From contig JAEOTB010000078.1 in the NCBI GenBank assembly GCA_016840065.1, positions 1-40,799 on the forward strand: 40,799 nucleotides of DNA, written 5' to 3'. The notes beneath the pieces are model-generated. The model did not search any database. It worked only from the letters and a program-made list of their open reading frames with translations, and was not told the origin of the DNA. The position numbers and the translations under genes were made by a program. Positions 17,351 to 30,398 of this stretch are shown piece after piece; position 1 is the first letter of the stretch; each line of letters opens with the position of its first letter. This stretch comes from Candidatus Hermodarchaeota archaeon (lineage in GTDB: Archaea > Asgardarchaeota > Hermodarchaeia > Hermodarchaeales > Hermodarchaeaceae).

Positions 17351-18385
17351 ATGTCAGATGATGATTTCAGCCGAGTAGAGCTTGCTCATGGTGCAGGTGG
17401 ACGAGCGATGACCAAGTTCCTAAAGGAAATCGTCTTTCCATGCTTTCAACTAAACAAGATTGACGGTGGGATTGGTTTACCGTCAGCTGATGATGGGGCT
17501 ACGATTCCCCTAGGTGACAGGGAACTTGTTATTTCAACAGACAGTCACACGGTTACCCCACTATTTTTTGCCGGAGGGGATATTGGAAGGTTGGCTGCCG
17601 CTGGTACTATAAATGATGTAGCAATGATGGGGGCTCGCCCGATTGTTATGACCTGCGCCCTACTTATTGAGGAGGGGTTTTCAATAACTAACTTGCATCG
17701 TATTCTTCGTTCTTTAGCAGCTACAGCACTTGAGGAGCGGGTAGCAGTTATCGCAGGTGATACAAAGGTTATGCCAAGAAATACAATTGACAAGCTTGTA
17801 ATCTGCACAACGGGTGTAGGTATTATAGAACAGGGAAAAGCTATAGTTGATAGCGGTATTCAGCCTGGCGACAAAATCATAATCACAGGGTCTATTGGAG
17901 ATCATGGTATTGCCATACTTGCTGAAAGAGATGGGCTTACGTTTGGCACCGAACTCAAATCAGATACTGCACCTTTATGGTCCACTGTTAAAGCGTGCCT
18001 AGAAGTAGGTGGTGTTCATGCAATGAAAGACCCGACACGAGGCGGCGTAGCTTCAGCGTTAAATGAATTAGCTACAAAGTCAGGTGTGAGTATCTGGATT
18101 GAAGAAGAGAAATTGCCAATACGACGCGAAGTTCAGGCGGCTAGTCAGATGTTGGGACTAGACCCACTTCAAGTAACATGTGAGGGGGCTGCTATTATTG
18201 CTGTAGAAAGAGAAAAAGCTGATACAGTACTTGACGCAATTCAGAAGACCCGTTACGGTGTTAATGCAAAAATATTAGGTGAGGCAAAAGAAGACAGGCA
18301 AGGGCTGGTTCTTATGAAGACAAAAGTTGGAGGCACTCGAATTATCCAACAACCTTGGGCAGAAGCGATTCCACGCGTTTGCTAG
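17351..18385 (+). CDS. hypE: Hydrogenase maturation protein HypE
   Basis: HGAGG, DDGA, TDSH, GGDIG, GTINDVAM, GDTKV, MKDPTRGG, C-terminal PRVC. Confidence 0.96.
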   Translation: MSDDDFSRVELAHGAGGRAMTKFLKEIVFPCFQLNKIDGGIGLPSADDGATIPLGDRELVISTDSHTVTPLFFAGGDIGRLAAAGTINDVAMMGARPIVMTCALLIEEGFSITNLHRILRSLAATALEERVAVIAGDTKVMPRNTIDKLVICTTGVGIIEQGKAIVDSGIQPGDKIIITGSIGDHGIAILAERDGLTFGTELKSDTAPLWSTVKACLEVGGVHAMKDPTRGGVASALNELATKSGVSIWIEEEKLPIRREVQAASQMLGLDPLQVTCEGAAIIAVEREKADTVLDAIQKTRYGVNAKILGEAKEDRQGLVLMKTKVGGTRIIQQPWAEAIPRVC

Positions 18386-18848
18386 CCGAAAATTTTGCTA
18401 AAATTTCTTCAATACGTTCCCAAAATATTGAATTATCACATACTGTAACAGGCTCCTTACTTTGAAGCCTAGTTCTAGATTCGGTCAAAAGAAACTTCGT
18501 GACTTGTTTTACAAGATACTCTAATAGTAATGGATTACAGTCTTTTGCACTGCACAGAACGATGAGAGCATTTGGTAATGACTGGAATGTGAACCTCCAT
18601 CGCCCTGCATCAAGCCGTTCAATACAATCTCCTGAGGTTACCTGTCTCACGAACATATTCAAAGCTGTAAAAAGACCACAAAGAATTGATGGATCAGTTT
18701 TCATGCTGTGGGGCTTGATGATGCGATAGAATAACGGACATCCTGATTCGCGCATAACAAAAATAGCATGAATGCCAGTAGATTTTCTATATTCTTCCTT
18801 TTCCTTATCTACTGCTGGATTTGGTGAAGTGGTATAGAAGCGAGCCAA
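18342..18848 (-). CDS. Stand-alone longin-like domain protein (Asgard-type)
   Basis: IHAIFVMRESGCPLFYR (beta1-beta2), DPSILCGLFTALNMF (alpha1), three further strands and two helices match the longin topology. TTG start after GAGGT. Confidence 0.72.
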   Translation of the reverse strand: MARFYTTSPNPAVDKEKEEYRKSTGIHAIFVMRESGCPLFYRIIKPHSMKTDPSILCGLFTALNMFVRQVTSGDCIERLDAGRWRFTFQSLPNALIVLCSAKDCNPLLLEYLVKQVTKFLLTESRTRLQSKEPVTVCDNSIFWERIEEILAKFSASKRVESLLPKVVG

Positions 18849-18935
18849 ATCAGAAACCTCAACAGATATGGCTCTAACCGCAAGTATGAATTTAAACTCA
18901 TAAATTGGAATACAAAGGAGTTACTAATCTAGTCA

Positions 18936-19478
18936 CTAGTTTACTGATTCCTGCTGTTTTTCTTGTTGTTGTATCCTACGAATCATCCTGCGGAGTTGGA
19001 TTTTGAGTTTCTCAAGATCGTAGTCAAAACCAAAGTAGTCTGCGAACATCTGGCTTGTAGTCAATTCTTTGGATCGTCCTTGGGGTTGTGACTCTAAGAA
19101 ACCTAATCCTTCAAGTTGTTTGATGTGCTTATAGCTGTGTGACCCACGGTACTCAACGACTTGGGATTGGAGTACTGGCTGTTTAAGAGCAATGTACAGC
19201 AGGGTCTTCAATTCACCTAATGAGAGAAGACCATGAGGAGCTAGAGTAGCAACCCGTTCGCTAAGATTAGGGTCTAGTTGGAGTACAAAACGTTGGCGAG
19301 GAAGTTGAGCTAGGACTAGAGCACCTCCCCGGGTTTTATATTCGTCAACGAGTTCATTGAGTATTTCGCGAATACGCTTGAGTGTGGGCAACTGGGTAGC
19401 ATCTTGAATTTCATGAATTGAGAGAGGGCGTCCTGAAATGTACAGAGCTGCTTCAACAAGTCTTTTGTCATCCTGCAT
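18936..19478 (-). CDS. scpB: SMC-Scp complex kite subunit ScpB
   Basis: VEAALYISGRPLS, ELKTLLYIALKQPV, RGSHSYKHIKQL, FADYFG. Start is 19478 or 19499. Confidence 0.93.
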   Translation of the reverse strand: MQDDKRLVEAALYISGRPLSIHEIQDATQLPTLKRIREILNELVDEYKTRGGALVLAQLPRQRFVLQLDPNLSERVATLAPHGLLSLGELKTLLYIALKQPVLQSQVVEYRGSHSYKHIKQLEGLGFLESQPQGRSKELTTSQMFADYFGFDYDLEKLKIQLRRMIRRIQQQEKQQESVN

Positions 19479-20166
19479 CAATTTCAACCTCGTCTCCATT
19501 TACCTCTAAGAATCGGATTAGAATATCTCCATAATCTGTATCTTGTGATACGAGTACTTTATCATCAGCTACTAGAAACATCAGAGTAAGAAATATACGG
19601 ATAATATCAATACGGGTTAAACCCTGTACAAATTCGAAGAAAGAAACAGGATTCTTCTTGCGACTAGCTTGACGTAACTGCTCAAATATGCTGTGCATCC
19701 ATTTCCCGAATTCGAAATCAGATTCTTGTTTCCGACCAAACGCCTCAGGCTGGGGTAGTGTTGTAATGCGACGTTTTCGTTTTCGCTTAGTAGAAGGGAA
19801 CACCAATTCACGCAGTGCTTCTACGAGTTCCGTTTCAGAAACAGGACGGACCTGTTGTCTAAAGGGAGGACGAATTGGTGGAAGAAAAATATCTTCCTCA
19901 ATTTCCGTGATTTCCTCCTCCTCACGACCAAATTCTAGAAGATACTCTGTTTTGTAGCGGAGTAAAATCGCCGCAGAAAGAAGGGCCCGTCCGCATATAC
20001 GGAAATCAAAATCTCCAACAAGAAGACGACCTATGAATCCATTAACTAACTCTGCTAGGTCAATCTCCCAAGGACTGACTTTCTGGAGTTCTAAGATGTC
20101 AGTTAGGATTCGCCAAGGTTGATGGAGCCAGAAAGGGTCCTGACTTCTTGTCGTCAATAACCTCAC
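19468..20166 (-). CDS. scpA: SMC-Scp complex kleisin ScpA
   Basis: PWEIDL, GRALLSAAILLRYK, C-terminal wHTH FLTLMFL...QDTDYGDI; lies between smc and scpB. The start may be TTG 20157. Confidence 0.92.
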   Translation of the reverse strand: MRLLTTRSQDPFWLHQPWRILTDILELQKVSPWEIDLAELVNGFIGRLLVGDFDFRICGRALLSAAILLRYKTEYLLEFGREEEEITEIEEDIFLPPIRPPFRQQVRPVSETELVEALRELVFPSTKRKRKRRITTLPQPEAFGRKQESDFEFGKWMHSIFEQLRQASRKKNPVSFFEFVQGLTRIDIIRIFLTLMFLVADDKVLVSQDTDYGDILIRFLEVNGDEVEIDAG

Positions 20167-20332
20167 TTTTTATGTAATTGTAATGGTATATTGCCCACAT
20201 TATTTTTAGAAAGGCCGCAATGCACACTGTAGATACTTCCTTCACCTGATAATTGATACATAAATGCTCCGAAGGGAACATTCTCCAACCATTAAACCGA
20301 GAGTTACTAACAGTGCACAAAATAAAACACAC

Positions 20333-23300
20333 TTAATTTCTAGAAGTCGGCTTCTCTACCATCAAGACTCCCTCTTCGAATTTTATCGAGAAGACACGAG
20401 ACAGACCATCGACCATCGCAACGCCATACAAAGTGTGGGCCCAACGAATGGTAATCTCGTTATGAGAGATTAATATGAATTGAGATTTCTGAGCCAGTTT
20501 ATCGAGTAGTTTTGCGACGCGCTCGGTATTTGTAGGATCAAGTGATTCATCAATCTCGTCTAGGAAGAAGAAAGGGGCAGGTTGGTGAAGCTGAAGAGCA
20601 AATATAAAGGCAAGAGCTGTAAGCGCTTTTTCTCCCCCAGAAAGTGCATCAAGATATTGTATACGTTTTCCTTCAGGTCTTGCTTTCATGCGAATCCCAC
20701 CCAAGAAGGGATTCTCGGGGTTCTCTAGTTCTAGCTCTCCTTCTCCGTCTGCCAGCTGCTTATAGACCTCAGCGAAGTGCCTTGAAATGCTTGTAAAAGA
20801 TGTCATGAATACCTTGAACTTCTCTGCTTCAGCTTTTCGCATTGCTTCAAGTATCGCTTCGCGTTCATCACGAATACTCTTTTCCTTCTCAGATATTTCT
20901 TGGTAGGCTTGTCTAACAACTTCAAATCTTTCAATGGCCTTTTGATTAATTAAACCAAGTTCTTCTCGTTCTTGCTCCAGTTCAGTAAGTTGTTTCCGTA
21001 AGCTATAGACGCTAGAAGGTAATATTGGCGCCAGCGGTGGCTTCATTCCTTTTACCTTTTCCTTTTGTGTTGCCAAGCGTTCTTCCCAATTCTCAATTCG
21101 AACTTCAAGTTTAGATAACCCATTCCGTTCCTCGCTGATTCTAGTAGTTAACTCCTCTACCAATTCAGCCAATCGCCGTCGTTCAGATTCGTTCTCTTCT
21201 AGCTGCTGCTCCAGAGTTACAAGCTCGTTTTTCAAATCAATTACTTCTTGAGCAAGAGCATCTGCTTGGGCTTGCGCGGCTTCATTCTCCTTCTCACAAT
21301 CTCCAAGTTCACCCTTAACGCGCTCGAACTCATTATTCAATTGTAATAGTTCCTTCTGCAAACGATTCTGCTCAGTTTGGGCAAAACGCATTTCACTACT
21401 CTTCTCAGCCAATTGGAGTTCTACTTCACGAAGTTGCGCCTCGAGTGCATCGAGTTCTCCACGAAGGCGGTTGATAGTACTATCAGTACTACTCCTCTCT
21501 AACTCTGCTAGTTTCTCTTGGTATCCTTGGCGTTCTGTGACTAGCTGGGCTATTCCCTCTTCTTCTTGCTTTTGTTTTTGAGTTAAATCATCTCTAGCTA
21601 GCTCTTCTTCCCGTAAGCTCTCTTCAAGTTTTATGACACTCGTTTTTAATGCAGTGAGTGATTCCTCTTTATCCGTTAAATCACCCCTTGCATCACTAAA
21701 ACGCTGCTCTATTTTTGTTAAATTTCGTTGCGCGACCGCGATTTGTTCACTGAGTGAATTGTTGGAACGCGTTAATTTCTCAAAATCCCGATTCAACGAT
21801 TCGCGTAATTCACGCAACTCTTTCAGTTTTCTTTGCAGTTCAGGAATCAAACTCTCTTCTTCTAAAGATAGAGATGGTAAGCGTTTGTAGTAACCACCAG
21901 TTAGAATGTGGTTTGGCTCAACAACATCACCATCGATTGTAATTTTCCTAAATCCTGGAGCTTTAATCAATCGTGCAATAGGCAGATCTTTTACGATAAT
22001 TGTATGGCCAAATGCAAACTCAAATGCAGAACGGAACTTCTCGTCAAAGGACAGAAGGTCAATGGCGTTGCCTATAACACCTGGAGACTTATTCTCATAG
22101 GTGGAGGGATTAGGACTGATTGATGCAAGAGGTATGAACGACGCGCGACCGATTTTGCTTTGTTTCAGATATCTTATACACCGAGCCGCTGTATCCTCAT
22201 TGTCAACGACAATGAAATCCAATCTTCCTCGACCTGCAACCTCCAGAGCTACAGCATATTCTGTTGAGGTTTTCCCTAGACTAGCAAGAGTGCCGTATAT
22301 TCCAGATATCTGTTTTTCTTCTGCATAACGGAGAATTGCATTGATTGCTGCTTGCCGTGACATTCTAAGCTTCCCAAGTTCACGGATAGTCTTAAGACGG
22401 GTTCGCGCCTCCAACAGTTCATCTTTTGTCCTCTGAATTAGCTGTTCAAGTTCAGTTTGTTCTCGTCTATGGTCAAGCATCGAAGTGCTTGTTGCTCGTT
22501 GTTGTTCTTGGATTTCCATCATCGAATCTCTTTTCTGTTGAACATCAACTTCTGTTTCTTCAAGTAATCTTCGTGCTTCTTCAATTTCTTGTTCTTGGTC
22601 TGAGACTAATGAGGAACTCATTGCGATTTGTTGCTGTAGATTAGCTATGTTCTGTTTAGCTACACGGAACATAGCTTTTATTTCACCTAGCTTTCCCCTT
22701 CTCTGTTCAATAGTCTCTGTTAGGGAAAGGACACTCGTTCTCGACTCTAGATAGTCAGTGTCGGGTTTAGAGAGTTGTACTGAAATCTGCATTAATTCCT
22801 TACGAAGAGGAGTGATTTTTGTCTTCAGTGCAGCTGCATCACCCTCAAGTTTCAATACTAGTTTTTCTAAACTAGAGTAGTTATCCGACTCGCTTCTCTC
22901 CAAAGATTGAAGATGAGTTATACTAGCGGAAACGGATTCGGTTTGGCTTCTAAGCTTGCTCAAGGTGATTTGAAGCCCACTAATTTTCTCGGTAATCCGC
23001 GATTTTTCTACTTCTTTAGCATGGCTCGAGCTTTCAAGGTCTTTCATCCGCACCTCAATTGTCTTGGCGGCACTTTCTAGAGCAATGATTTGTTCTTTTG
23101 ATTCCTGTTTTTGTTGTTCAAATTGATTTATGGTCTTGGATAAAGCAGAGAACGCGTTCTGTAAATCATTTAGACGTTCTTCAACACGGGCTAGCTCAGC
23201 GAATGCTAACTCACGTTGGAGCAGCCCGATTTTTTCAGTTATTTCTTGCCAGCGAAGAGCATCACTTCGATCACGTTCTAATCGTTCGTATTCTTGACGG

Positions 23301-23899
23301 ATTTCTTCTGTACGCACTTGAACTAGACCCAGGTTTGCATCAACTTTTTTGAGCTCTTCCTCGATTTGCCGTTTCTTCTCATCATAAACTGAAATGCCAG
23401 CGATGTTTTCAACTATTTGACGGATTTGAGTAGATGACATGCCGACGATATTTGATAGCTCAGTTTGGAGGACGATATTGTACCCCTCAGGATGCAATCC
23501 AGCGGCACCTATTGTATCTAGAAGCTCTGTTCTTGTGCAACGTTTCCCATTAAGACGATACACACTAACACCGCTTGTATCAATTTCCCTGCTAACCGAA
23601 ACCTCATCAGCGTCTATCGGAAGTTGCCTGTCCTTGTTATCGAAAACCATCGTCACACGACAGAATTTTGCAGGAGAATTTCCTTCACCGCCATTGTACA
23701 ACAATGAGGCGAAGTTTTCTGCTCGGAGAGCTTTACTACTCAATCGACCTAGAACAAAGCACACTGCGTCGAGAATATTGCTTTTTCCACAGCCGTTCTT
23801 TCCAACAAAGACAGTCAGGCCTTTGTTAAAATTCAAGGTCACTTTTCGTGCCCCGAATGATTTGAACCCTGAAAGCTGTAATTGCCGGATATGAGCCAC
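20333..23899 (-). CDS. smc: Chromosome segregation protein SMC
   Basis: GFKSF, Walker A GKNGCGKSN, coiled coils, hinge (GIYG, GRASFIPL, LTGG), signature LSGGE, Walker B FFLDEID, ISH. Confidence 0.97.
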   Translation of the reverse strand: MAHIRQLQLSGFKSFGARKVTLNFNKGLTVFVGKNGCGKSNILDAVCFVLGRLSSKALRAENFASLLYNGGEGNSPAKFCRVTMVFDNKDRQLPIDADEVSVSREIDTSGVSVYRLNGKRCTRTELLDTIGAAGLHPEGYNIVLQTELSNIVGMSSTQIRQIVENIAGISVYDEKKRQIEEELKKVDANLGLVQVRTEEIRQEYERLERDRSDALRWQEITEKIGLLQRELAFAELARVEERLNDLQNAFSALSKTINQFEQQKQESKEQIIALESAAKTIEVRMKDLESSSHAKEVEKSRITEKISGLQITLSKLRSQTESVSASITHLQSLERSESDNYSSLEKLVLKLEGDAAALKTKITPLRKELMQISVQLSKPDTDYLESRTSVLSLTETIEQRRGKLGEIKAMFRVAKQNIANLQQQIAMSSSLVSDQEQEIEEARRLLEETEVDVQQKRDSMMEIQEQQRATSTSMLDHRREQTELEQLIQRTKDELLEARTRLKTIRELGKLRMSRQAAINAILRYAEEKQISGIYGTLASLGKTSTEYAVALEVAGRGRLDFIVVDNEDTAARCIRYLKQSKIGRASFIPLASISPNPSTYENKSPGVIGNAIDLLSFDEKFRSAFEFAFGHTIIVKDLPIARLIKAPGFRKITIDGDVVEPNHILTGGYYKRLPSLSLEEESLIPELQRKLKELRELRESLNRDFEKLTRSNNSLSEQIAVAQRNLTKIEQRFSDARGDLTDKEESLTALKTSVIKLEESLREEELARDDLTQKQKQEEEGIAQLVTERQGYQEKLAELERSSTDSTINRLRGELDALEAQLREVELQLAEKSSEMRFAQTEQNRLQKELLQLNNEFERVKGELGDCEKENEAAQAQADALAQEVIDLKNELVTLEQQLEENESERRRLAELVEELTTRISEERNGLSKLEVRIENWEERLATQKEKVKGMKPPLAPILPSSVYSLRKQLTELEQEREELGLINQKAIERFEVVRQAYQEISEKEKSIRDEREAILEAMRKAEAEKFKVFMTSFTSISRHFAEVYKQLADGEGELELENPENPFLGGIRMKARPEGKRIQYLDALSGGEKALTALAFIFALQLHQPAPFFFLDEIDESLDPTNTERVAKLLDKLAQKSQFILISHNEITIRWAHTLYGVAMVDGLSRVFSIKFEEGVLMVEKPTSRN

Positions 23900-23949
23900 G
23901 AGAGTATCCCCGTCAACTTCGCCAAGTTTTCGAATTTAATTTTAATAAT

Positions 23950-23973
23950 AGGCTTCCCGTCAGGAAGCCTGAC
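23950..23973. promoter_or_regulatory. Two overlapping inverted repeats upstream of smc (terminator or operator)
   Basis: AGGCTTCC-N5-GGAAGCCT (23950-23970) overlaps GTCAGG-AAG-CCTGAC (23959-23973). Confidence 0.4.
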
Positions 23974-24004
23974 ATATAAGAGCGGGTAATATCCCTAGTG
24001 TTTT

Positions 24005-24385
24005 TTAACCTTGTTCTATCTTTTCTACCGCTCTTCGGAGACTCCTGATAATAAGGCCTAAGCTGGGGGCTGCATCTTTTCCTGCAATCGCTACAGCAAA
24101 GGTCTTCATGCCGTGAACTGTTATTGTGTAACCATTCTCTGACTCGATGTAAAGGACCTGCGATGTACCCTGGTTAACAGCAGTGTTGACATTTTTTGAT
24201 TCATTATATAATGCCAAAACACTAGCGGCAATCTTGGAATGATCCTTTTCTGTCAGTGTTTGACCTGCAGCTACTTTCCCTGAGGAGGAGGCGACGATTA
24301 AGCCTTCGATTTCAGGTATAATATCCATAATTTGGCTGAGAATTTGTTCAATTGCTTCCTTGTTAGGCATTGAAGACACGCTCAC
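24005..24385 (-). CDS. Roadblock/LC7 domain protein
   Basis: IEQILSQI...IPEIEGLIVASSSG, IAASV helix, YIESENGYTI, PSLGLIIRSLRRAVEKI give the complete roadblock fold. Confidence 0.88.
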   Translation of the reverse strand: MSVSSMPNKEAIEQILSQIMDIIPEIEGLIVASSSGKVAAGQTLTEKDHSKIAASVLALYNESKNVNTAVNQGTSQVLYIESENGYTITVHGMKTFAVAIAGKDAAPSLGLIIRSLRRAVEKIEQG

Positions 24386-24531
24386 GATTCTAATATACCT
24401 AAGACGATGCCCTATTCTGAGATAAGTGTTTAGAAGATAAAAACTGTTCTCTTTAGTTTAGGAGAACGATTAGTCATAAGCAGAGTTCAAGACATTCAAG
24501 GAGACAAACCACCTTCGGGTGTATCGATAAG

Positions 24532-24632
24532 AATCAGGAATTATTCTCAATCAGAATACTTGACCCCTCCAATAACAACAGAGCATGTTCTGATTACTAG
24601 GATACCTTTATAACTAAATCAGGAGACTGATT
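24532..24632. promoter_or_regulatory. TATA box (TTTATAA 24607-24613) amid five AATCAG/CTGATT hexamers
   Basis: AATCAG at 24532, 24549 and 24617; CTGATT at 24590 and 24627; located in the divergent intergenic region of the roadblock cluster. Confidence 0.45.
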
Positions 24633-24658
24633 AATTAGAAGCAAAGTGTGGGTTCCTA

Positions 24659-24961
24659 ATGATAGGTGGAAAGGCATTAAAAGATACTCTTAAGCGTTTG
24701 GAAGCTCATGAAGGTGTACGTGGTGTAATAATCACGAATATGGAAGGATTACCCATAAAGTCGACTCTCGGTGCTGAAAAAACTGAGATAATAGCTGCCC
24801 TCATCACCTCTCTTATTGGGAAGGCAAAACGGGTTGTGGATGAATTGGGTGAAGAGTTGGGAGCTAACTTCATGAATTTTCTTACTATTTCAACACCTGA
24901 AAGTGAGATATTGGTCGCCCCCGAAGAAGATTATATTTTGATATTATTGAAGAGTACTTAG
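24659..24961 (+). CDS. Roadblock/LC7 protein, dynein light chain roadblock (DYNLRB)-like short form
   Basis: TLKRL...[16 protein letters not shown]...FLTI...[13 protein letters not shown]; ends after the last strand with no C-terminal helix. Confidence 0.9.
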
Positions 24962-25054
24962 GAATTTGTATTTCTGAAACCTACTCCCCAAAAGAATTTA
25001 AGTCGCCAATCAAATGATTAAAACTACAAGCCCTGGTGGAAAGGAGCTATCTAA

Positions 25055-25522
25055 ATGCACCCTGTAAAAACCTTTGACGAAATCCTCGCTGATGTCATCA
25101 AAAGCGAGGGAGGAATCAAGAAGTGCATCCTTGTAGACAGAACTGGACTCACGATTGCCCATGTCTCCAAGTTCAGCTATTATCCTCTCGATGTTGATGG
25201 AATAGGCGCTATCGCTAGTGCCGTTTTCTGTGCAAGTGAAGAGCAGGGTAAGAACTTGGATGTAGGTAATCTAATTATTGTTACTTCAGAATTCGATGAT
25301 GGAAAAATCTTCGCTGCTGGTGCCGGTAAAGGCGTTCTGTGTGTTATTACTGACAAAGAAGTCAATCTTGGCATGATCAGAATGGTGATGAAAAAAGCAG
25401 CAACAGAACTAGCTAAAGTTCTCGAAGAATTCTTGTCCGAGAAACCATCAGTTGAAACTGGTAAAACTGACTCTGAAAGAGAGGAACTCCGAGCGGCACT
25501 AGGAGAACTGGAAAGGGGATAA
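25055..25522 (+). CDS. Roadblock protein, MglB-like, with C-terminal extension
   Basis: CILVDRTGLTIA, IGAIASAVF, VNLGMIRMVMKKAATEL, then a linker and helix EREELRAALGELE; directly upstream of the MglA-type GTPase. Confidence 0.88.
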   Translation: MHPVKTFDEILADVIKSEGGIKKCILVDRTGLTIAHVSKFSYYPLDVDGIGAIASAVFCASEEQGKNLDVGNLIIVTSEFDDGKIFAAGAGKGVLCVITDKEVNLGMIRMVMKKAATELAKVLEEFLSEKPSVETGKTDSEREELRAALGELERG

Positions 25523-25551
25523 GAAGAACTCCAACAAAGGAGGAGCACCCA

Positions 25552-26136
25552 GTGAGGAAAGACACACAAGGCAGAATGCATTTTAAAATCGTGTTTTGGG
25601 GACCCTCACTTTCAGGTAAAACAACAGCCCTTCGATGGATTTACGATAACGTTGAGGGGTTACAGAAAGGTAGTTTCACATCTGTAGCCGACCACACGGG
25701 TCGAACTTTGTTCTTTGATTATACTCCGGTTCAAGCAACAGAGCAAGTAGTCTTTGAAATATATACTGTTGCTGGTCAGAAACGGCACGCAGGACAGCGT
25801 AAGGTAATTCTAGAAGGCGTTGATGGCATAATATTCGTAGCGGATTCATCTCCTGACCAAATGGAAGCAAATATCGAAAGCCTGAACGAGCTTCGCGAAT
25901 TACTTGGGCCTCGGTTGGGTCATGAGGTTCTCCTTCTCGTTATGCTCAATAAGCAGGATTTACCAAACGCTATGCAAAAAGATGTCATGCTAGCAAAACT
26001 AGGCCTTGGCAATGTAACATGTTTCACTACCTGCGCTCTGTCTGGAGAAAACGTGAAACGAACCTTCCGACAAATAACCCGAGATATCTTAATGCAGCAT
26101 GTATACCAAGCTCCAGCAAAAGCATCAGCGAGTTAA
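25552..26136 (+). CDS. MglA-family small GTPase
   Basis: KIVFWGPSLSGKTT (G1), RTLFFD (G2 with the MglA-type intrinsic Arg), YTVAGQ (G3, cf. TVPGQ), GVDGIIFVADS, NKQDLP (G4), CA (G5). Confidence 0.92.
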   Translation: MRKDTQGRMHFKIVFWGPSLSGKTTALRWIYDNVEGLQKGSFTSVADHTGRTLFFDYTPVQATEQVVFEIYTVAGQKRHAGQRKVILEGVDGIIFVADSSPDQMEANIESLNELRELLGPRLGHEVLLLVMLNKQDLPNAMQKDVMLAKLGLGNVTCFTTCALSGENVKRTFRQITRDILMQHVYQAPAKASAS

Positions 26137-26146
26137 GTTAACATTG

Positions 26147-26521
26147 ATGTTATCGAGTTCACCGGAAATTGAGGCAATCCTTGAAGAACTCACCAAGTCA
26201 CTAGATGACGTAGAAGCTGCAGTAGTAGTTGGCATAGATGGATTACCAATCGCAGCGAATTTACCAGAAGAATTTGATGAAACTCTAGTAGCTGCTATGA
26301 GCGCTGCCCTCTTAACTGTAGGAGAACGTGCCGCATCCGATTTAGGGAAAGGCGACCTTCATCAAGTCTTTGCTCAAGGTGCCACTGGTGCAATAATTAT
26401 GGTCGCTGCTGGACAAGATGCAGTTCTTATGGCAAGTACGACTATCAGTGCTGTCACTGGTCTAGGCTTGGTCTTCATTAAAATGGAACAAGCAGCTGCT
26501 AAAATTTCCAAGCATCTGTAA
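26147..26521 (+). CDS. Roadblock/LC7 domain protein
   Basis: Start ATG 26147. VEAAVVVGIDGLPIAA, VAAMSAALLTVGERAASDLGKG, LGLVFIKME are typical of prokaryotic roadblock proteins. Confidence 0.9.
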   Translation: MLSSSPEIEAILEELTKSLDDVEAAVVVGIDGLPIAANLPEEFDETLVAAMSAALLTVGERAASDLGKGDLHQVFAQGATGAIIMVAAGQDAVLMASTTISAVTGLGLVFIKMEQAAAKISKHL

Positions 26522-26607: not shown

Positions 26608-27375
26608 ATGCCAAATATCATGGGACCTTTCTATCATATTTATTCATGGCTTCTTTGGCGACAAATCAAAGATGCGCCCATGCCAAAGCATATAGGCATA
26701 ATTCTTGATGGAAACCGCCGCTATGCTCGTGAACAGAATAAAGACGCAGGATTTGGTCACGAACAAGGCGCCAAGCGGATTGATGAAGTGCTGGATTGGT
26801 GCTTCGATGCAGGAATAGAAATCGTCACAATATATGTATTCTCAACGGAAAACTTTGATCGGAACGAAACAGAAATAGAGAAAATAATGGAACTAGCATG
26901 CCAGCAATTCTTAAGGGCTGCAGGTTCAGAGAGTATTCATCGGCATAAAGTACGTGTACGTGCAATTGGTCGTCTTTCTCTTTTACCTTCAAAGGTATTA
27001 TCTGCAATACGAGAAGCAGAAGAGTCGACAGAAGCCTACGAGAATTTCCAACTCAATGTGGCTATTGGATATGGCGGTAGAACTGAGATTGTTGATGCTG
27101 TGCGTCGAATTGCCGAGAGAGTTAAAACCGGAGAAATCAACCCTAGAACCATTACAACTGGAACAATAGAAGAACACCTTTACACTGCAGGTATTGCAGA
27201 TCCCGAATTGATAATTCGTACGTCTGGAGAAGAGCGTTTGTCTGGATTTCTATTATGGCAATCTGCCTACTCGGAACTCTATTTCGCGGACATCTTTTGG
27301 CCAAAGATAAGAAAGATTGATTTCTGGCGAGCATTAAGGACTCTACAACAACGTGAGCGGCGTTTTGGTAGATAG
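26608..27375 (+). CDS. uppS: cis-prenyltransferase (polyprenyl diphosphate synthase)
   Basis: PKHIGIILDGNRRYA, FSTENFDR, YGGRTEI, IRTSGEERLSGFLLWQ, C-terminal RRFG. Confidence 0.96.
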   Translation: MPNIMGPFYHIYSWLLWRQIKDAPMPKHIGIILDGNRRYAREQNKDAGFGHEQGAKRIDEVLDWCFDAGIEIVTIYVFSTENFDRNETEIEKIMELACQQFLRAAGSESIHRHKVRVRAIGRLSLLPSKVLSAIREAEESTEAYENFQLNVAIGYGGRTEIVDAVRRIAERVKTGEINPRTITTGTIEEHLYTAGIADPELIIRTSGEERLSGFLLWQSAYSELYFADIFWPKIRKIDFWRALRTLQQRERRFGR

Positions 27376-27387
27376 GAGCTGATGTAG

Positions 27388-27813
27388 ATACCACGTGGAA
27401 GAAGGAAATCAACTGCAATCCTCGTTGATAGTTCGATAACAGTATCAAGTGCAATGCTATTGCCACAACTTCGGATTCTAGTGGAGGAAAAGATAGGACG
27501 TATAAAAGTTGCAAAGGTAGTGCTGTTACAAGAACAGGCTCAAGAATATTCAGAAGAAATTACCCAAAACGGATTTCTTCCTGTGATTGTACACGACGAT
27601 TTGGATGTTCATTTTGCACTAGAGGCAATGGAACTCGTCTATAATGAGAAGATACAAATTATTGTCATCGTTACAGAAAATAGGAATTTGCTCCCACTTC
27701 TAGTTAAGGCACAAGAATTAGGAAAAGAAATCAACCTTATCCAAATAGGTGACACTCCAAATAACGGTTTACAAAACGCAGCTGATCATGTCTTCCCAAT
27801 GAAGATTAGTTAA
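27388..27813 (+). CDS. NYN-domain (PIN-like, TIGR00288-like) protein, probably catalytically degenerate; ATA start proposed
   Basis: The frame is open from ATA 27388 and includes strand 1 TAILVD upstream of ATG 27454. DLDVHFALEAME, LPLLVKAQELGKE, LQNAADHV. Confidence 0.75.
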   Translation: MPRGRRKSTAILVDSSITVSSAMLLPQLRILVEEKIGRIKVAKVVLLQEQAQEYSEEITQNGFLPVIVHDDLDVHFALEAMELVYNEKIQIIVIVTENRNLLPLLVKAQELGKEINLIQIGDTPNNGLQNAADHVFPMKIS

Positions 27814-27816
27814 TCA

Positions 27817-28710
27817 CTATAGAAGTCCACGCTTCATCAGAAGTGAGAACTCTTCCATTGTCAGCTTCTCGCCCCGTTTGAATTTCTCCAAAGCAGTACT
27901 TGCCTTTTGTTCAAGGCGTTCCTCCATAACTTGAAGCTTTTCTAGACGTTGTCTCAGACGAACCTCGCCAATCTCCTTTCGAAGTCGAGCCGACTCCTGT
28001 TTAGCTTCAATGAAGCGTCGGTGCGACTCGTCAGCCTCACGACGGACTTCTAAGTAGCGCCGGTGGGCTTCATCAGCACGCTTCCTTAACACGTCTACTT
28101 CAGCATAAGCTTCAATCATGTGCTGATTTTCTTCTTGTGATTGGCGAGCAAATTCTAATACAGAGTTATGATGAGCGTTCATAAGAAGGCGAAGGTCCTC
28201 TATCTCACCGCGCGCACGAACACTTTCCTGTCTCTTCGACAGCATTTGCTCTGCTATCTCCAAGTCCCCTTCTATAAGAGCGATTTGTTCAATGAGTTCC
28301 CGTTCTTGCTTTAAATCTAAAACAGATGTCTGTAGAGTCCATTCGAGCTCTCGTACCCTTTTTCGTAGGACATGCACTGGAGTTGTTACAACGTCCTTGA
28401 TTTTTTCAGCCACTTCTTCAGTATCCTGACGCTCACCAATCTTTGCCTTAAGTTTTTGGTGAACCTCATCGCGTTGAATTTTGAAATCAGCTACCTTCTG
28501 ATTATACTCATCCCGTTTCTCGCGATGTTCCCTTGCTTTAGCTAGCCATTCTGCTACGAGAGAATTAAGGCGATCACGTTCCTTTACTAGCTCTTGTGCC
28601 TCTTTGTTGAGCTGGTCACGTTTTTCTCGGAGCTGGTCTGCAAGCCGACTAATTTCTGCAAGCCGAAGTACAACATCCTCAGTCTTGCTAGTTTCAGCCT
28701 TACTAGCCAA
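27817..28710 (-). CDS. Conserved archaeal coiled-coil protein (COG1340-like)
   Basis: Repeated KRD.LN heptads, LEWTLQTSVL...ERELIEQI, ADEAH, C-terminal KFKRGEKLTMEEF. Confidence 0.85.
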   Translation of the reverse strand: MASKAETSKTEDVVLRLAEISRLADQLREKRDQLNKEAQELVKERDRLNSLVAEWLAKAREHREKRDEYNQKVADFKIQRDEVHQKLKAKIGERQDTEEVAEKIKDVVTTPVHVLRKRVRELEWTLQTSVLDLKQERELIEQIALIEGDLEIAEQMLSKRQESVRARGEIEDLRLLMNAHHNSVLEFARQSQEENQHMIEAYAEVDVLRKRADEAHRRYLEVRREADESHRRFIEAKQESARLRKEIGEVRLRQRLEKLQVMEERLEQKASTALEKFKRGEKLTMEEFSLLMKRGLL

Positions 28711-28821
28711 TAATTAACCACCTAGGGTGTTCAACGGGTGAAAAGGTCTTTTGTGGCTAATGCTTTTAAGATTAACGGCGCTGCACCCTTCTTTTCCTTG
28801 AAATGAATTCCTAAAGACAAA

Positions 28822-29535
28822 TCACGTCTTTTCTTCTAGGATTATCCGAGCATCGACGCATTTAGCGCCTTTTGGATAGGAGAAAACTGGATTAAGATCC
28901 AGTTCATTGATTTCTGGATAATCGGTGACCAGCTTTGACACTTGAAGGAGGATGTTGACAATGGCATCAATATCACAAGGTTCTTTTCCACGAATACCTG
29001 TCAAAATAGGATAGCCCTTAATTTCTGTAATCATCTCTCTCGCATCATAAGGTATGATAGGCGCAACGCGAAAACTTACATCCTTCAGAACCTCAACGAA
29101 AATCCCTCCTAATCCGAAAAGCAAAGTATTACCGAACTGTTTATCTTTTATAGAACCTATTATTATTTCAACGCCTTGTTTCGCGAATTCCTGGACGATT
29201 ACTCCTGTGATACGAGCACCCTGTTTGTATTTTTCAGCGTTAGCGAGAATTTGTTGGTAGGCAGCCCTTACTTCGTCAGCTGTTTGCAGATTCAGGAACA
29301 CGCCACCTGCGTCGCTTTTATGGAGGATATCAGGGCTCAGCACCTTTAGCACTACAGCACCTATTTCTGATGCTAGTTGTACTGCTTCTTCCTCAGTAGT
29401 TGCGACACCGAACTTTGTGACTGGAATCCCGTATTCCTGCATAATGGCCTTTGACTCGTGTTCTAGAAGGAAGGTACGGTTTTCGGCTCTTGCGGTTGCT
29501 ATTATTTCCTTGGTTTTGGACAAGGTATTCACCAA
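28822..29535 (-). CDS. ADP-forming acyl-CoA synthetase beta subunit (ATP-grasp)
   Basis: LLEHESK, VLKVLSPDILHKSDAGGV, FGLGGIFVEVLKDVSFR, ELDLNPV, VDARI. The start may be TTG 29523. Confidence 0.92.
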   Translation of the reverse strand: MVNTLSKTKEIIATARAENRTFLLEHESKAIMQEYGIPVTKFGVATTEEEAVQLASEIGAVVLKVLSPDILHKSDAGGVFLNLQTADEVRAAYQQILANAEKYKQGARITGVIVQEFAKQGVEIIIGSIKDKQFGNTLLFGLGGIFVEVLKDVSFRVAPIIPYDAREMITEIKGYPILTGIRGKEPCDIDAIVNILLQVSKLVTDYPEINELDLNPVFSYPKGAKCVDARIILEEKT

Positions 29536-29618
29536 TGAAGTAAATCTTTTGCTCCTACACTTAAGCCTAATTAAAGATAATTGCTCTACAAGATTTACTT
29601 CAAGAATAAGGAAGGCAA

Positions 29619-30398
29619 CTACCTGAAATGTTCAAAACCCTCACCGCCAGTTAAAGTATTAGATATCTGGGTGAACAGAATATCCAAGTTTCCATTTGTT
29701 TTTGAGGAAACAGGGGTGACGTTTGACTCGGCAAATATTCGCTGAAGTGTACGATATAATTCGCTAGTTAGTTCACCTTGGAGTTGGTTTCTTGACTTCT
29801 CGACATCGAAAACAAGCTGATCAACATCATCAAGCCAAGCCATTATGTGTTCCAATTCAGTTTCTGATAACAAATCTGCTCTAGATAATACATTTAGTTG
29901 TGGTAAGTTAAAGCGTACAAGCACTGAGGCAGACAGGAGCAAAGAAGAGACGAACCCCGCAGGCGTTCTCGCTAGCGCAGAATCGATGAGAAATAAAAGC
30001 ATCTTTCTTTCACCGCCCACAGAAGATACTATGATTGGGCCTGTTTCACGGAAGGCAAACAATTCTATTTGACCTGGAGTGTCAAATAATACAAAGTCAG
30101 TACCAAGATCATCTATTTCATCCTTTAGCGTGTCTAGATGTGCACTCATAAGATCTATGGAAGCTATGAGCCCGCCGTTTGGACCAAGATTATATTTTCC
30201 CATCACTTCTTGAAGAGAAACATAATCCCGAATATCAATATCAGGTGAGTAGGGTAACAAAACAACTCCAGGGTCAAGATTAACAGTAGCTGCACTGATT
30301 TTAGCGTCTTGTAACCATTGAGCGAAAACGCCTGTGAGCGCAGATTTACCCGCTCCCGCTGTCCCGACGAAATAAAGTGAATGTACCATCAGAGTCAC
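29619..30398 (-). CDS. GPN-loop GTPase
   Basis: GTAGAGKS, VNLDPG, LGPNGG, DTPGQIELF. Confidence 0.93.
   Translation of the reverse strand: MTLMVHSLYFVGTAGAGKSALTGVFAQWLQDAKISAATVNLDPGVVLLPYSPDIDIRDYVSLQEVMGKYNLGPNGGLIASIDLMSAHLDTLKDEIDDLGTDFVLFDTPGQIELFAFRETGPIIVSSVGGERKMLLFLIDSALARTPAGFVSSLLLSASVLVRFNLPQLNVLSRADLLSETELEHIMAWLDDVDQLVFDVEKSRNQLQGELTSELYRTLQRIFAESNVTPVSSKTNGNLDILFTQISNTLTGGEGFEHFR

Follow-up and report, generated by a model that had tools for sequence, protein, structure and literature searches.

The closest described counterparts of the gene cluster considered here, in which four roadblock genes surround the gene of an MglA-family small GTPase in Candidatus Hermodarchaeota archaeon, are the bacterial MglA-MglB switches. 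In Myxococcus, the C-terminal helix of MglB sits on a linker and makes a second, allosteric contact with MglA, and MglB is itself modulated by MglC and RomY. Bacterial Group 1 MglA is a slow GTPase that a roadblock dimer stimulates in a 2:1 complex. Eukaryotic Ragulator is built from obligate roadblock heterodimers, of long (LAMTOR2/3) and short (LAMTOR4/5) subunits, wrapped by the LAMTOR1 scaffold, and Asgard genomes encode dozens of small GTPases together with roadblock or longin proteins. The coupling of MglA to MglB has already been described, as have 1:2 MglA:MglB systems, which couple at most two MglB genes to the GTPase and have only one of those genes in the co-evolving clade; the same survey placed Group 1 MglA in bacteria only (PMC4316618). 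For the Asgard archaea, MglA-like GTPases and single roadblock structures have been described (PMC10933270), a model of one Thorarchaeota MglA-MglB pair has been published (PMC13408092), and Liu et al. (2020, 10.1101/2020.10.19.343400) assigned three roadblock/longin and two GTPase families to the Asgard core. In MK-D1, the order of the genes gives no indication of the regulator that belongs to a given GTPase (Tran et al. 2024).

The stretch of DNA that we analyzed (the window, 40,799 nt) is one contig, JAEOTB010000078.1, of a 2.59-Mb genome that is 84% complete (GCA_016840065.1). There is good support for reading its cluster as an MglA/MglB-type switch with additional, fixed roadblock partners, and we regard the cluster as a variant of the MglA/MglB module in which three or four roadblock genes accompany MglA. 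We found no description of the RB2-RB3-MglA-RB4 operon, as we refer to it below, in the literature searched; the operons described by Liu et al. are others. Like the systems of Thermus thermophilus (3T12/3T1Q) and Myxococcus xanthus (6IZW/6H5B), the locus has a Group-1-type MglA with intrinsic Arg and Gln, a roadblock gene directly upstream of mglA, a roadblock C-terminal helix on a linker, and further roadblock paralogs, the bacterial one being MglC, with RomY as another accessory protein. Unlike them, it lies in an archaeal host and associates three or four roadblock orthogroups with MglA, one of them DYNLRB-like, and no RomR/RomX or Frz partners were seen within the window. The 1:2 systems (PMC4316618) also place one MglA-family GTPase gene beside more than one MglB-family gene, but the coupling here is 1:3 (+1) and Asgard-wide. 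Liu et al. described another conserved Asgard operon of a roadblock-superfamily protein and a small GTPase; it joins a Rab-like GTPase and a DENN partner to one LAMTOR1-like roadblock gene, whereas the present locus has MglA and several roadblocks. The Haloferax Arco/Dip oscillator was considered as a functional analogue and rejected, as its regulator is SepF-like, its GTPase carries an amphipathic helix at the N-terminus, and it has no roadblock protein.

The cluster and its GTPase

The 126-aa RB1 gene (24005-24385, minus strand) is divergent from the other four and has the same direction as smc-scpA-scpB, which lie downstream of it. On the plus strand follow RB2 (24659-24961; 100 aa, a short roadblock without a third helix), RB3 (25055-25522; 155 aa), the GTPase (25552-26136; 194 aa, GTG start) and RB4 (26147-26521; 124 aa, a full-length roadblock). 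A sequence-only reading of this DNA had reported four roadblock genes of these lengths around one GTPase in 2.5 kb, three of them co-oriented with it, and the motifs RTLFFD and TVAGQ in the GTPase; our analysis bears out each of these statements. All four proteins pass the Pfam Robl_LC7 cut-off (E-values of 6.7e-6 for RB1, 5.8e-17 for RB2, 1.8e-9 for RB3 and 1.9e-15 for RB4). Such a grouping is not attributable to chance, because the whole 2.59-Mb genome has only 13 Robl matches, so that ∼0.013 would be expected per 2.5 kb and the Poisson probability of finding four there is near 1e-9, and because the arrangement recurs in other genomes.

Two of the gene models required a choice of start codon. 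The GTG start of the GTPase is supported by D4 and G7, which lie ahead of the first ATG and are invariant among 29 Asgard orthologs. The longest open reading frame (ORF) of RB4 starts at 26099 and would give 140 aa; the start at 26147 is favored, since the 25 orthologs are 121 to 134 aa long.

On sequence grounds, the GTPase is a single-domain MglA of the Group 1 type and not a Rag/Gtr protein. It matches Thermus MglA at an E-value of 3.5e-36 and Myxococcus MglA at 1.2e-32, compared with ∼1e-10 for Arf and 3.9e-6 for Gtr1_RagA. Group 1 MglA proteins are defined by an Arg next to the G2 Thr and by a TVPGQ-type G3 motif in place of DxxGQ (Wuichet and Sogaard-Andersen 2015, PMC4316618). Here the Arg directly precedes the Thr (GRTLFFD, R51/T52), and G3 reads TVAGQ, in which the Thr and Gln are kept and Ala takes the place of Pro in the whole Asgard set. 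The long segment between G1 and G2 (switch I) is also present, with a gap-free alignment to Thermus MglA from the P-loop to RTLFFD, and MglB-family genes, which in Group 1 lie within four genes, are found 29 nt upstream (RB3) and 10 nt downstream (RB4). Among the 29 orthologs T52, T72, A74, G75 and Q76 are invariant, R51 occurs in at least 90%, the P-loop and NKxD are likewise kept, and the mean column identity is 67%. Every named protein among the best 120 relatives of this MglA listed is from Asgard archaea.

Other MglA-like genes occur in these archaea. The source genome has two further paralogs, 35-36% identical (contigs C14, 2808-3329, and C41, 357-896), and neither contig carries a roadblock match. 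Thorarchaeia have a second MglA-type gene (L071:5757-6596), ∼50% identical to the window MglA, with no roadblock gene adjacent. We rejected the idea that its ∼290-aa product is a roadblock fusion, as the ∼100-aa N-terminal tail is low-complexity sequence of Ser, Glu, Arg and Lys.

Roadblock orthogroups and their conservation

The four roadblock proteins were placed in a maximum-likelihood tree of 98 roadblock proteins, and profiles of their orthologs were searched against the sequences in the PDB. RB1 (98/83), RB2 (100/98) and RB3 (99/99) form strongly supported clades; the RB4 proteins also group together, but weakly supported (56/4) and among the generic paralogs of the genome. RB2 and RB3 come out as sisters, but at a point where the program warns of long-branch attraction. 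Mean column identity across the Asgard orthologs is highest for RB3 (69%), followed by RB4 (60%), RB2 (53%) and RB1 (46%). The RB1 profile (16 orthologs) finds 9JQ8, titled an MK-D1 "Roadblock2 homodimer", at 1.5e-24, and no closer named relative.

The profile of RB2 (26 orthologs) sets this protein apart as specifically DYNLRB-like. Its best match is 7F8F, a 94-aa Robl_LC7 chain (1.7e-39), and human and fly dynein light chain roadblock proteins follow at 5e-24 to 3e-23 (5e-24 for human DYNLRB1), compared with 3e-9 or worse for other prokaryotic roadblocks. The orthologs, 94 to 111 aa long, end just after the last strand and share with DYNLRB/LC7 the short architecture without a third helix. 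For the Odin member of this group, Tran et al. (2024) describe a DYNLRB-like homodimer. RB2 itself, unlike DYNLRB, shares an operon with genes for a GTPase and for MglB-like proteins. In a search of 5.8 billion proteins, the named relatives of RB2 were all from Asgard archaea. We know of no dynein in archaea.

RB3 has the features that would be looked for in an MglB-like protein. Its AlphaFold2 (AF2) model is an alpha-beta-alpha roadblock with a disordered linker (130-137; predicted local distance difference test, pLDDT, below 50) and a final helix (139-154), and the top Foldseek match is Thermus MglB (2.8e-11; template modelling, TM, scores of 0.71/0.82). As in MglB, the face of helix 2 is rich in Ala, with IGAIASA invariant across Asgard classes, and the C-terminal helix stands on a flexible linker, with L145, A148, L152 and E153 invariant and the linker variable. 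RB3 is ∼22% identical to MglB; its match to Pfam MAPKK1_Int (27.1 bits) is weaker than that to Robl_LC7. The nearest longer non-Asgard relatives of RB3 (P0276-P0280, 381-407 aa, one labelled Nitrospirota) consist of a response regulator, DUF4388 and a roadblock.

RB4 is classed by its matches as a generic prokaryotic roadblock of the CvnB/MglB kind. Its profile finds 7F8M, a Thor roadblock (3e-32), 9JUE, titled an MK-D1 "Roadblock3 homodimer" (1e-30), CvnB5 (5e-18) and MglB (4e-6). The AF2 model is a complete roadblock without extension (pLDDT 89; TM 0.89-0.97 to 9JUE), whose structural neighbors are the MK-D1 Roadblock3 homodimer and the Thor roadblock, then Myxococcus MglB (TM ∼0.83). CvnB is thus the characterized bacterial roadblock closest to RB4, and the actinobacterial conservons (CvnA-D/Mfp) are also operons of an MglA-family GTPase and a roadblock; unlike them, the cluster here has no histidine kinase or CvnC/DUF742, and its GTPase belongs to Group 1, with the Arg finger, rather than to Group 2. 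RB4 was also considered as an MglC and rejected, since no chain named MglC appears among its profile matches or the top 50 Foldseek matches listed.

Structures of single group members are consistent with homodimers. Odin RBLC7 and Thor-RB are homodimers (Tran et al. 2024); 7F8F and 7F8M are probably these two proteins, to judge from chain length and the molecular-replacement models, and Foldseek confirms 7F8M as a Thor roadblock. Together with what the titles of 9JUE and 9JQ8 say, homodimer structures thus exist for members of the RB2-, RB4- and RB1-type groups.

To follow the cluster in relatives we used 161 Asgard genomes in 26 coded families (f1 and so on), in which 60-odd loci were annotated by means of the window proteins and of profiles built from them. 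An MglA ortholog (E≤1e-40) is present in 125 of the 161 genomes. The full core RB2-RB3-MglA-RB4 occurs in 10 of the 26 families, namely Hermodarchaeia (f1), Baldrarchaeia (f8, f14), Jordarchaeales (f7), Freyarchaeia (f18), Atabeyarchaeia (f12), Thorarchaeia (f6), f3, f15 and f25, and it is found on complete chromosomes of one Freyarchaeia and two Atabeyarchaeia. RB1 stands divergent beside RB2 in eight of these ten families and in f2, nine in all. Some lineages keep part of the arrangement: RB2-MglA only in Heimdallarchaeaceae (f4), an RB2-like gene and MglA with RB4 adjacent or nearby in f13, f23 and f24, and RB3-MglA with RB4 farther on in f21. In such lineages, RB3 and RB4 are still encoded elsewhere in the genome. 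Altogether, RB2, RB3 or RB4 lies directly beside MglA in 15 sampled families, and each position is always held by the same orthogroup, never by an arbitrary paralog. The four orthogroups had already separated before the classes split. The core is kept despite changed flanks on both sides (Jordarchaeales locus L036; L045 and L082), inversion of RB4 (L039, L040) and insertions (L033, L034 and L040, in the last of up to 2.3 kb).

The best indication of a tie among the roadblock genes themselves, in addition to that with MglA, comes from family f2. Two genomes of ∼1.4 Mb, probably Odin-type (G019, a single contig, and G030, six contigs; loci L087 and L088), hold RB1|RB2-RB3-RB4 together beside smc-scpAB, with MglA 142 kb off. 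The sequence-only reading had held that the locus is more than an MglAB pair with incidental neighbors and would have been given up had the cluster not been conserved in relatives; the core in ten families and the quartet that stays together where MglA has moved away sustain it on both points. The operon stands as an exception to the MK-D1 picture, one GTPase having three or four fixed, ancient partners in most Asgard classes.

A search for fused forms returned 11 proteins (P0265-P0275, 469-497 aa) with a C-terminal roadblock that is 56-65% identical to RB3 and without the C-terminal helix. Their GTPase part is Arf/Ras-like, not MglA, and has no MglA Arg finger; the overall domain order is Rag-like, and the ∼125-aa N-terminal region is possibly longin-like. 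These natural fusions show that RB3-type domains work with GTPases. In one example (L093:6001-7479, GCA_030599585.1), an RB4-type gene lies two genes downstream (L093:8356-8958), so that RB3 is again linked to RB4. Among the longer RB3 relatives we found no fusion of two different cluster roadblocks and no RB3-MglA-RB4 fusion.

Possible workings of the cluster

We think it probable that the cluster is an operon, conserved in Asgard archaea, that encodes an MglA-type switch together with regulators of the roadblock fold, RB3 being the likely GTPase-activating protein (GAP) and RB2 and RB4 accessory dimers. Both the arginine finger (R51) and the catalytic glutamine (Q76) are contained in MglA itself, as in bacterial Group 1 MglA. 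By analogy to Thermus and Myxococcus, a roadblock dimer would dock its Ala-rich two-helix face on the hydrophobic beta2 stretch (LFFDY) of GTP-bound MglA and so set R51 and Q76 for hydrolysis. In the Thermus complex, L55, F56, F57 and F59 of MglA pack on helix 2 of MglB, and A68/72R weakens binding (PMC3199381); the equivalents here are RTLFFDY in MglA and the invariant IGAIASA in RB3. RB3 is the likeliest GAP, and would also be an allosteric regulator of MglA, because it lies directly upstream of mglA like bacterial mglB, is closest to MglB, and has the flexible linker and conserved amphipathic C-terminal helix. RB2 and RB4 may act on the same MglA cycle as adaptors, localizers or alternative platforms, comparable to MglC and RomY acting on MglB, and RB1 would be a fourth, more loosely attached member, bordering on smc-scpAB. 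The cellular output may be spatial or polarity control. A single complex prediction of MglA with two copies of RB3 and, as partner, two of RB2 scored 0.29 against a mark of 0.32 and speaks neither for nor against binding.

Several observations weigh against this assignment of roles, or against the operon as a unit. The resemblance of RB3 to MglB is distant: the NCBIfam model of Thermus MglB (NF052242) gives an E-value of 2.2e-8 and 34.4 bits, below its equivalog cut-off of 200 bits, and the best PDB matches of the RB3 profile are Myxococcus MglB at ∼1e-6 and LAMTOR2 at 9e-4. With RB4 almost as close to MglB, RB3 is MglB-like and not an MglB ortholog, and RB4, whose core is about as MglB-like (4e-6; TM ∼0.83), might be the actual GAP. 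In Heimdallarchaeaceae only RB2 adjoins MglA, RB3 being diverged and distant, so that RB2 may be the direct MglA partner there. The cluster genes are dispersed in f9, a large family mostly without an MglA ortholog at the threshold used, in which RB2, RB3 and MglA are present but on separate contigs; this agrees with the finding that MK-D1 GTPase genes generally lie outside operons with roadblock genes (Tran et al. 2024). Part of the conservation could moreover be regional collinearity, because the block from smc to UppS-NYN-DUF7121-ATP-grasp-GPN is syntenic too.

One rival reading is a plain MglA-MglB pair whose roadblock neighbors are incidental and kept by regional synteny. The wider block, with smc and the genes from UppS to GPN, is indeed conserved in many of the same genomes, and Asgard genomes are rich in roadblock paralogs (13 here). 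Such a pair is nevertheless very improbable in our judgment, as the core outlasts changed flanks, RB4 inversion, insertions to 2.3 kb and the loss of MglA from the cluster, the same orthogroup always fills each position, and Heimdallarchaeaceae keep RB2-MglA adjacency alone. The roadblock set could also serve mainly another machine, for example chromosome organization with SMC-ScpAB or other nucleoside triphosphatases, with MglA as one client among several. RB1 is upstream of smc and co-directional with it in Hermodarchaeia, Thorarchaeia, Freyarchaeia and f25 (f1, f6, f18 and f25), the smc operon is also near in f2, the quartet persists without an adjacent MglA, and the genome has two further MglA paralogs whose contigs hold no roadblock match. 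The proximity of RB1 to smc hints at a link of the roadblock set to chromosome segregation genes, but smc adjacency is missing in Atabeyarchaeia, Jordarchaeales and f15 and concerns RB1 only, and the 15 families with RB2, RB3 or RB4 directly flanking MglA also argue against another main client. To our knowledge, no roadblock-SMC interaction has been reported, and we consider this explanation improbable.

A hetero-oligomeric platform, in which two or more of RB1 to RB4 form heterodimers or stacked dimers and act as one multi-subunit MglA regulator like Ragulator or MglB-MglC, would account for other features. That the RB1|RB2-RB3-RB4 adjacency is kept with MglA 142 kb away points to mutual dependence, the RB3-RB4 linkage recurs beside the GTPase-RB3 fusion, and the unusual constraint on RB3 (69% column identity) is as expected of a protein with several interfaces. 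The 1:2 MglA:MglB systems exist (PMC4316618), and the MglB dimer binds MglA asymmetrically (PMC3199381), which would make a hard-wired heterodimer a natural elaboration. Yet members of the RB2-, RB4- and RB1-type groups homodimerize when expressed alone, which argues against obligate LAMTOR-style heterodimers and is compatible with stacks of dimers; several lineages retain mere subsets beside MglA, and the longer proteins included no fusion of two different cluster roadblocks. The platform is, on balance, unlikely, if conceivable. The sequence-only reading had gone further, to a proto-Ragulator intermediate between MglAB and the eukaryotic assemblies. As in Ragulator-Rag (LAMTOR1-5, RagA/C), several different roadblock-fold proteins, long and short, are encoded beside a small GTPase gene, but no paralog is specifically LAMTOR-like: when the paralogs were compared with LAMTOR2-5, the RB3-LAMTOR2 match fell behind MglB, RB2 matched LAMTOR2 at 8e-3 and LAMTOR5 at 0.055, and RB4 and RB1 had no match at E≤1. 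In place of a Rag/Gtr heterodimer with C-terminal roadblock domains, the client is a single 194-aa MglA-type domain, no LAMTOR1-like gene was seen in the cluster among the ORFs or by Pfam, and the structures known for members of three of the four groups are homodimers. The proto-Ragulator claim is therefore not supported, and "intermediate" is too strong a word where only RB2 has a specific eukaryotic relative, DYNLRB.

For the preferred switch with fixed partners, the cluster offers a defined five-protein set for reconstitution, and tests of the complex are realistic since single-member structures exist for three of the four groups. A pre-dynein role of the roadblock light chain family also becomes testable, because its closest prokaryotic relatives adjoin an MglA/MglB-type switch. 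We offer, as a speculation that is itself rather unlikely, that RB2, RB3 and RB4, with RB1 in many lineages, stack as dimers around MglA and that eukaryotic DYNLRB descends directly from the RB2 lineage. The conserved C-terminal helix of RB3 might then even bind the helix-less face of RB2, as a helix of the dynein intermediate chain binds DYNLRB. Were this so, the dynein roadblock light chain would have begun as a subunit of a small-GTPase regulatory platform.

Operon structure and neighboring features

On the minus strand (18342-24385), RB1 is co-directional with smc, scpA and scpB and with an ORF that weakly resembles a longin (Fuz_longin_1, E-value 3.4e-4, below the cut-off). Downstream of the cluster, genes for UppS, an NYN protein, DUF7121, an ATP-grasp protein and a GPN-loop GTPase (26608-30398) are syntenic with the cluster in Baldrarchaeia, Atabeyarchaeia and other lineages. 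A 133-aa antisense ORF within RB3 (25180-25581, minus strand), rich in Ser, Leu and Pro, was taken as spurious. In one Thorarchaeia genome, RB3 and MglA are 1 kb apart, and between them lies an antisense frame for a Ras/Rab-like GTPase (L034:7837-8349, plus strand) with the P-loop GEGDVGKS and one in-frame stop, which could reflect a pseudogene, a sequencing error or readthrough.

The intergenic gaps RB2-RB3, RB3-MglA and MglA-RB4 are 93, 29 and 10 nt long, and across 28 orthologous loci the same gaps are mostly 10-180 nt. A scan for sigma-70 promoters and terminators gave promoters no better than those of shuffled sequences, the bacterial model being inapplicable to an archaeal host. The box TTTATAACT (24607-24615, plus strand), ∼45 nt before the RB2 start, is a candidate archaeal TATA box for the RB2-RB3-MglA-RB4 unit. 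This putative promoter element is unchanged in six loci of two Hermodarchaeota genera, and the remaining sequence between RB1 and RB2 has diverged.

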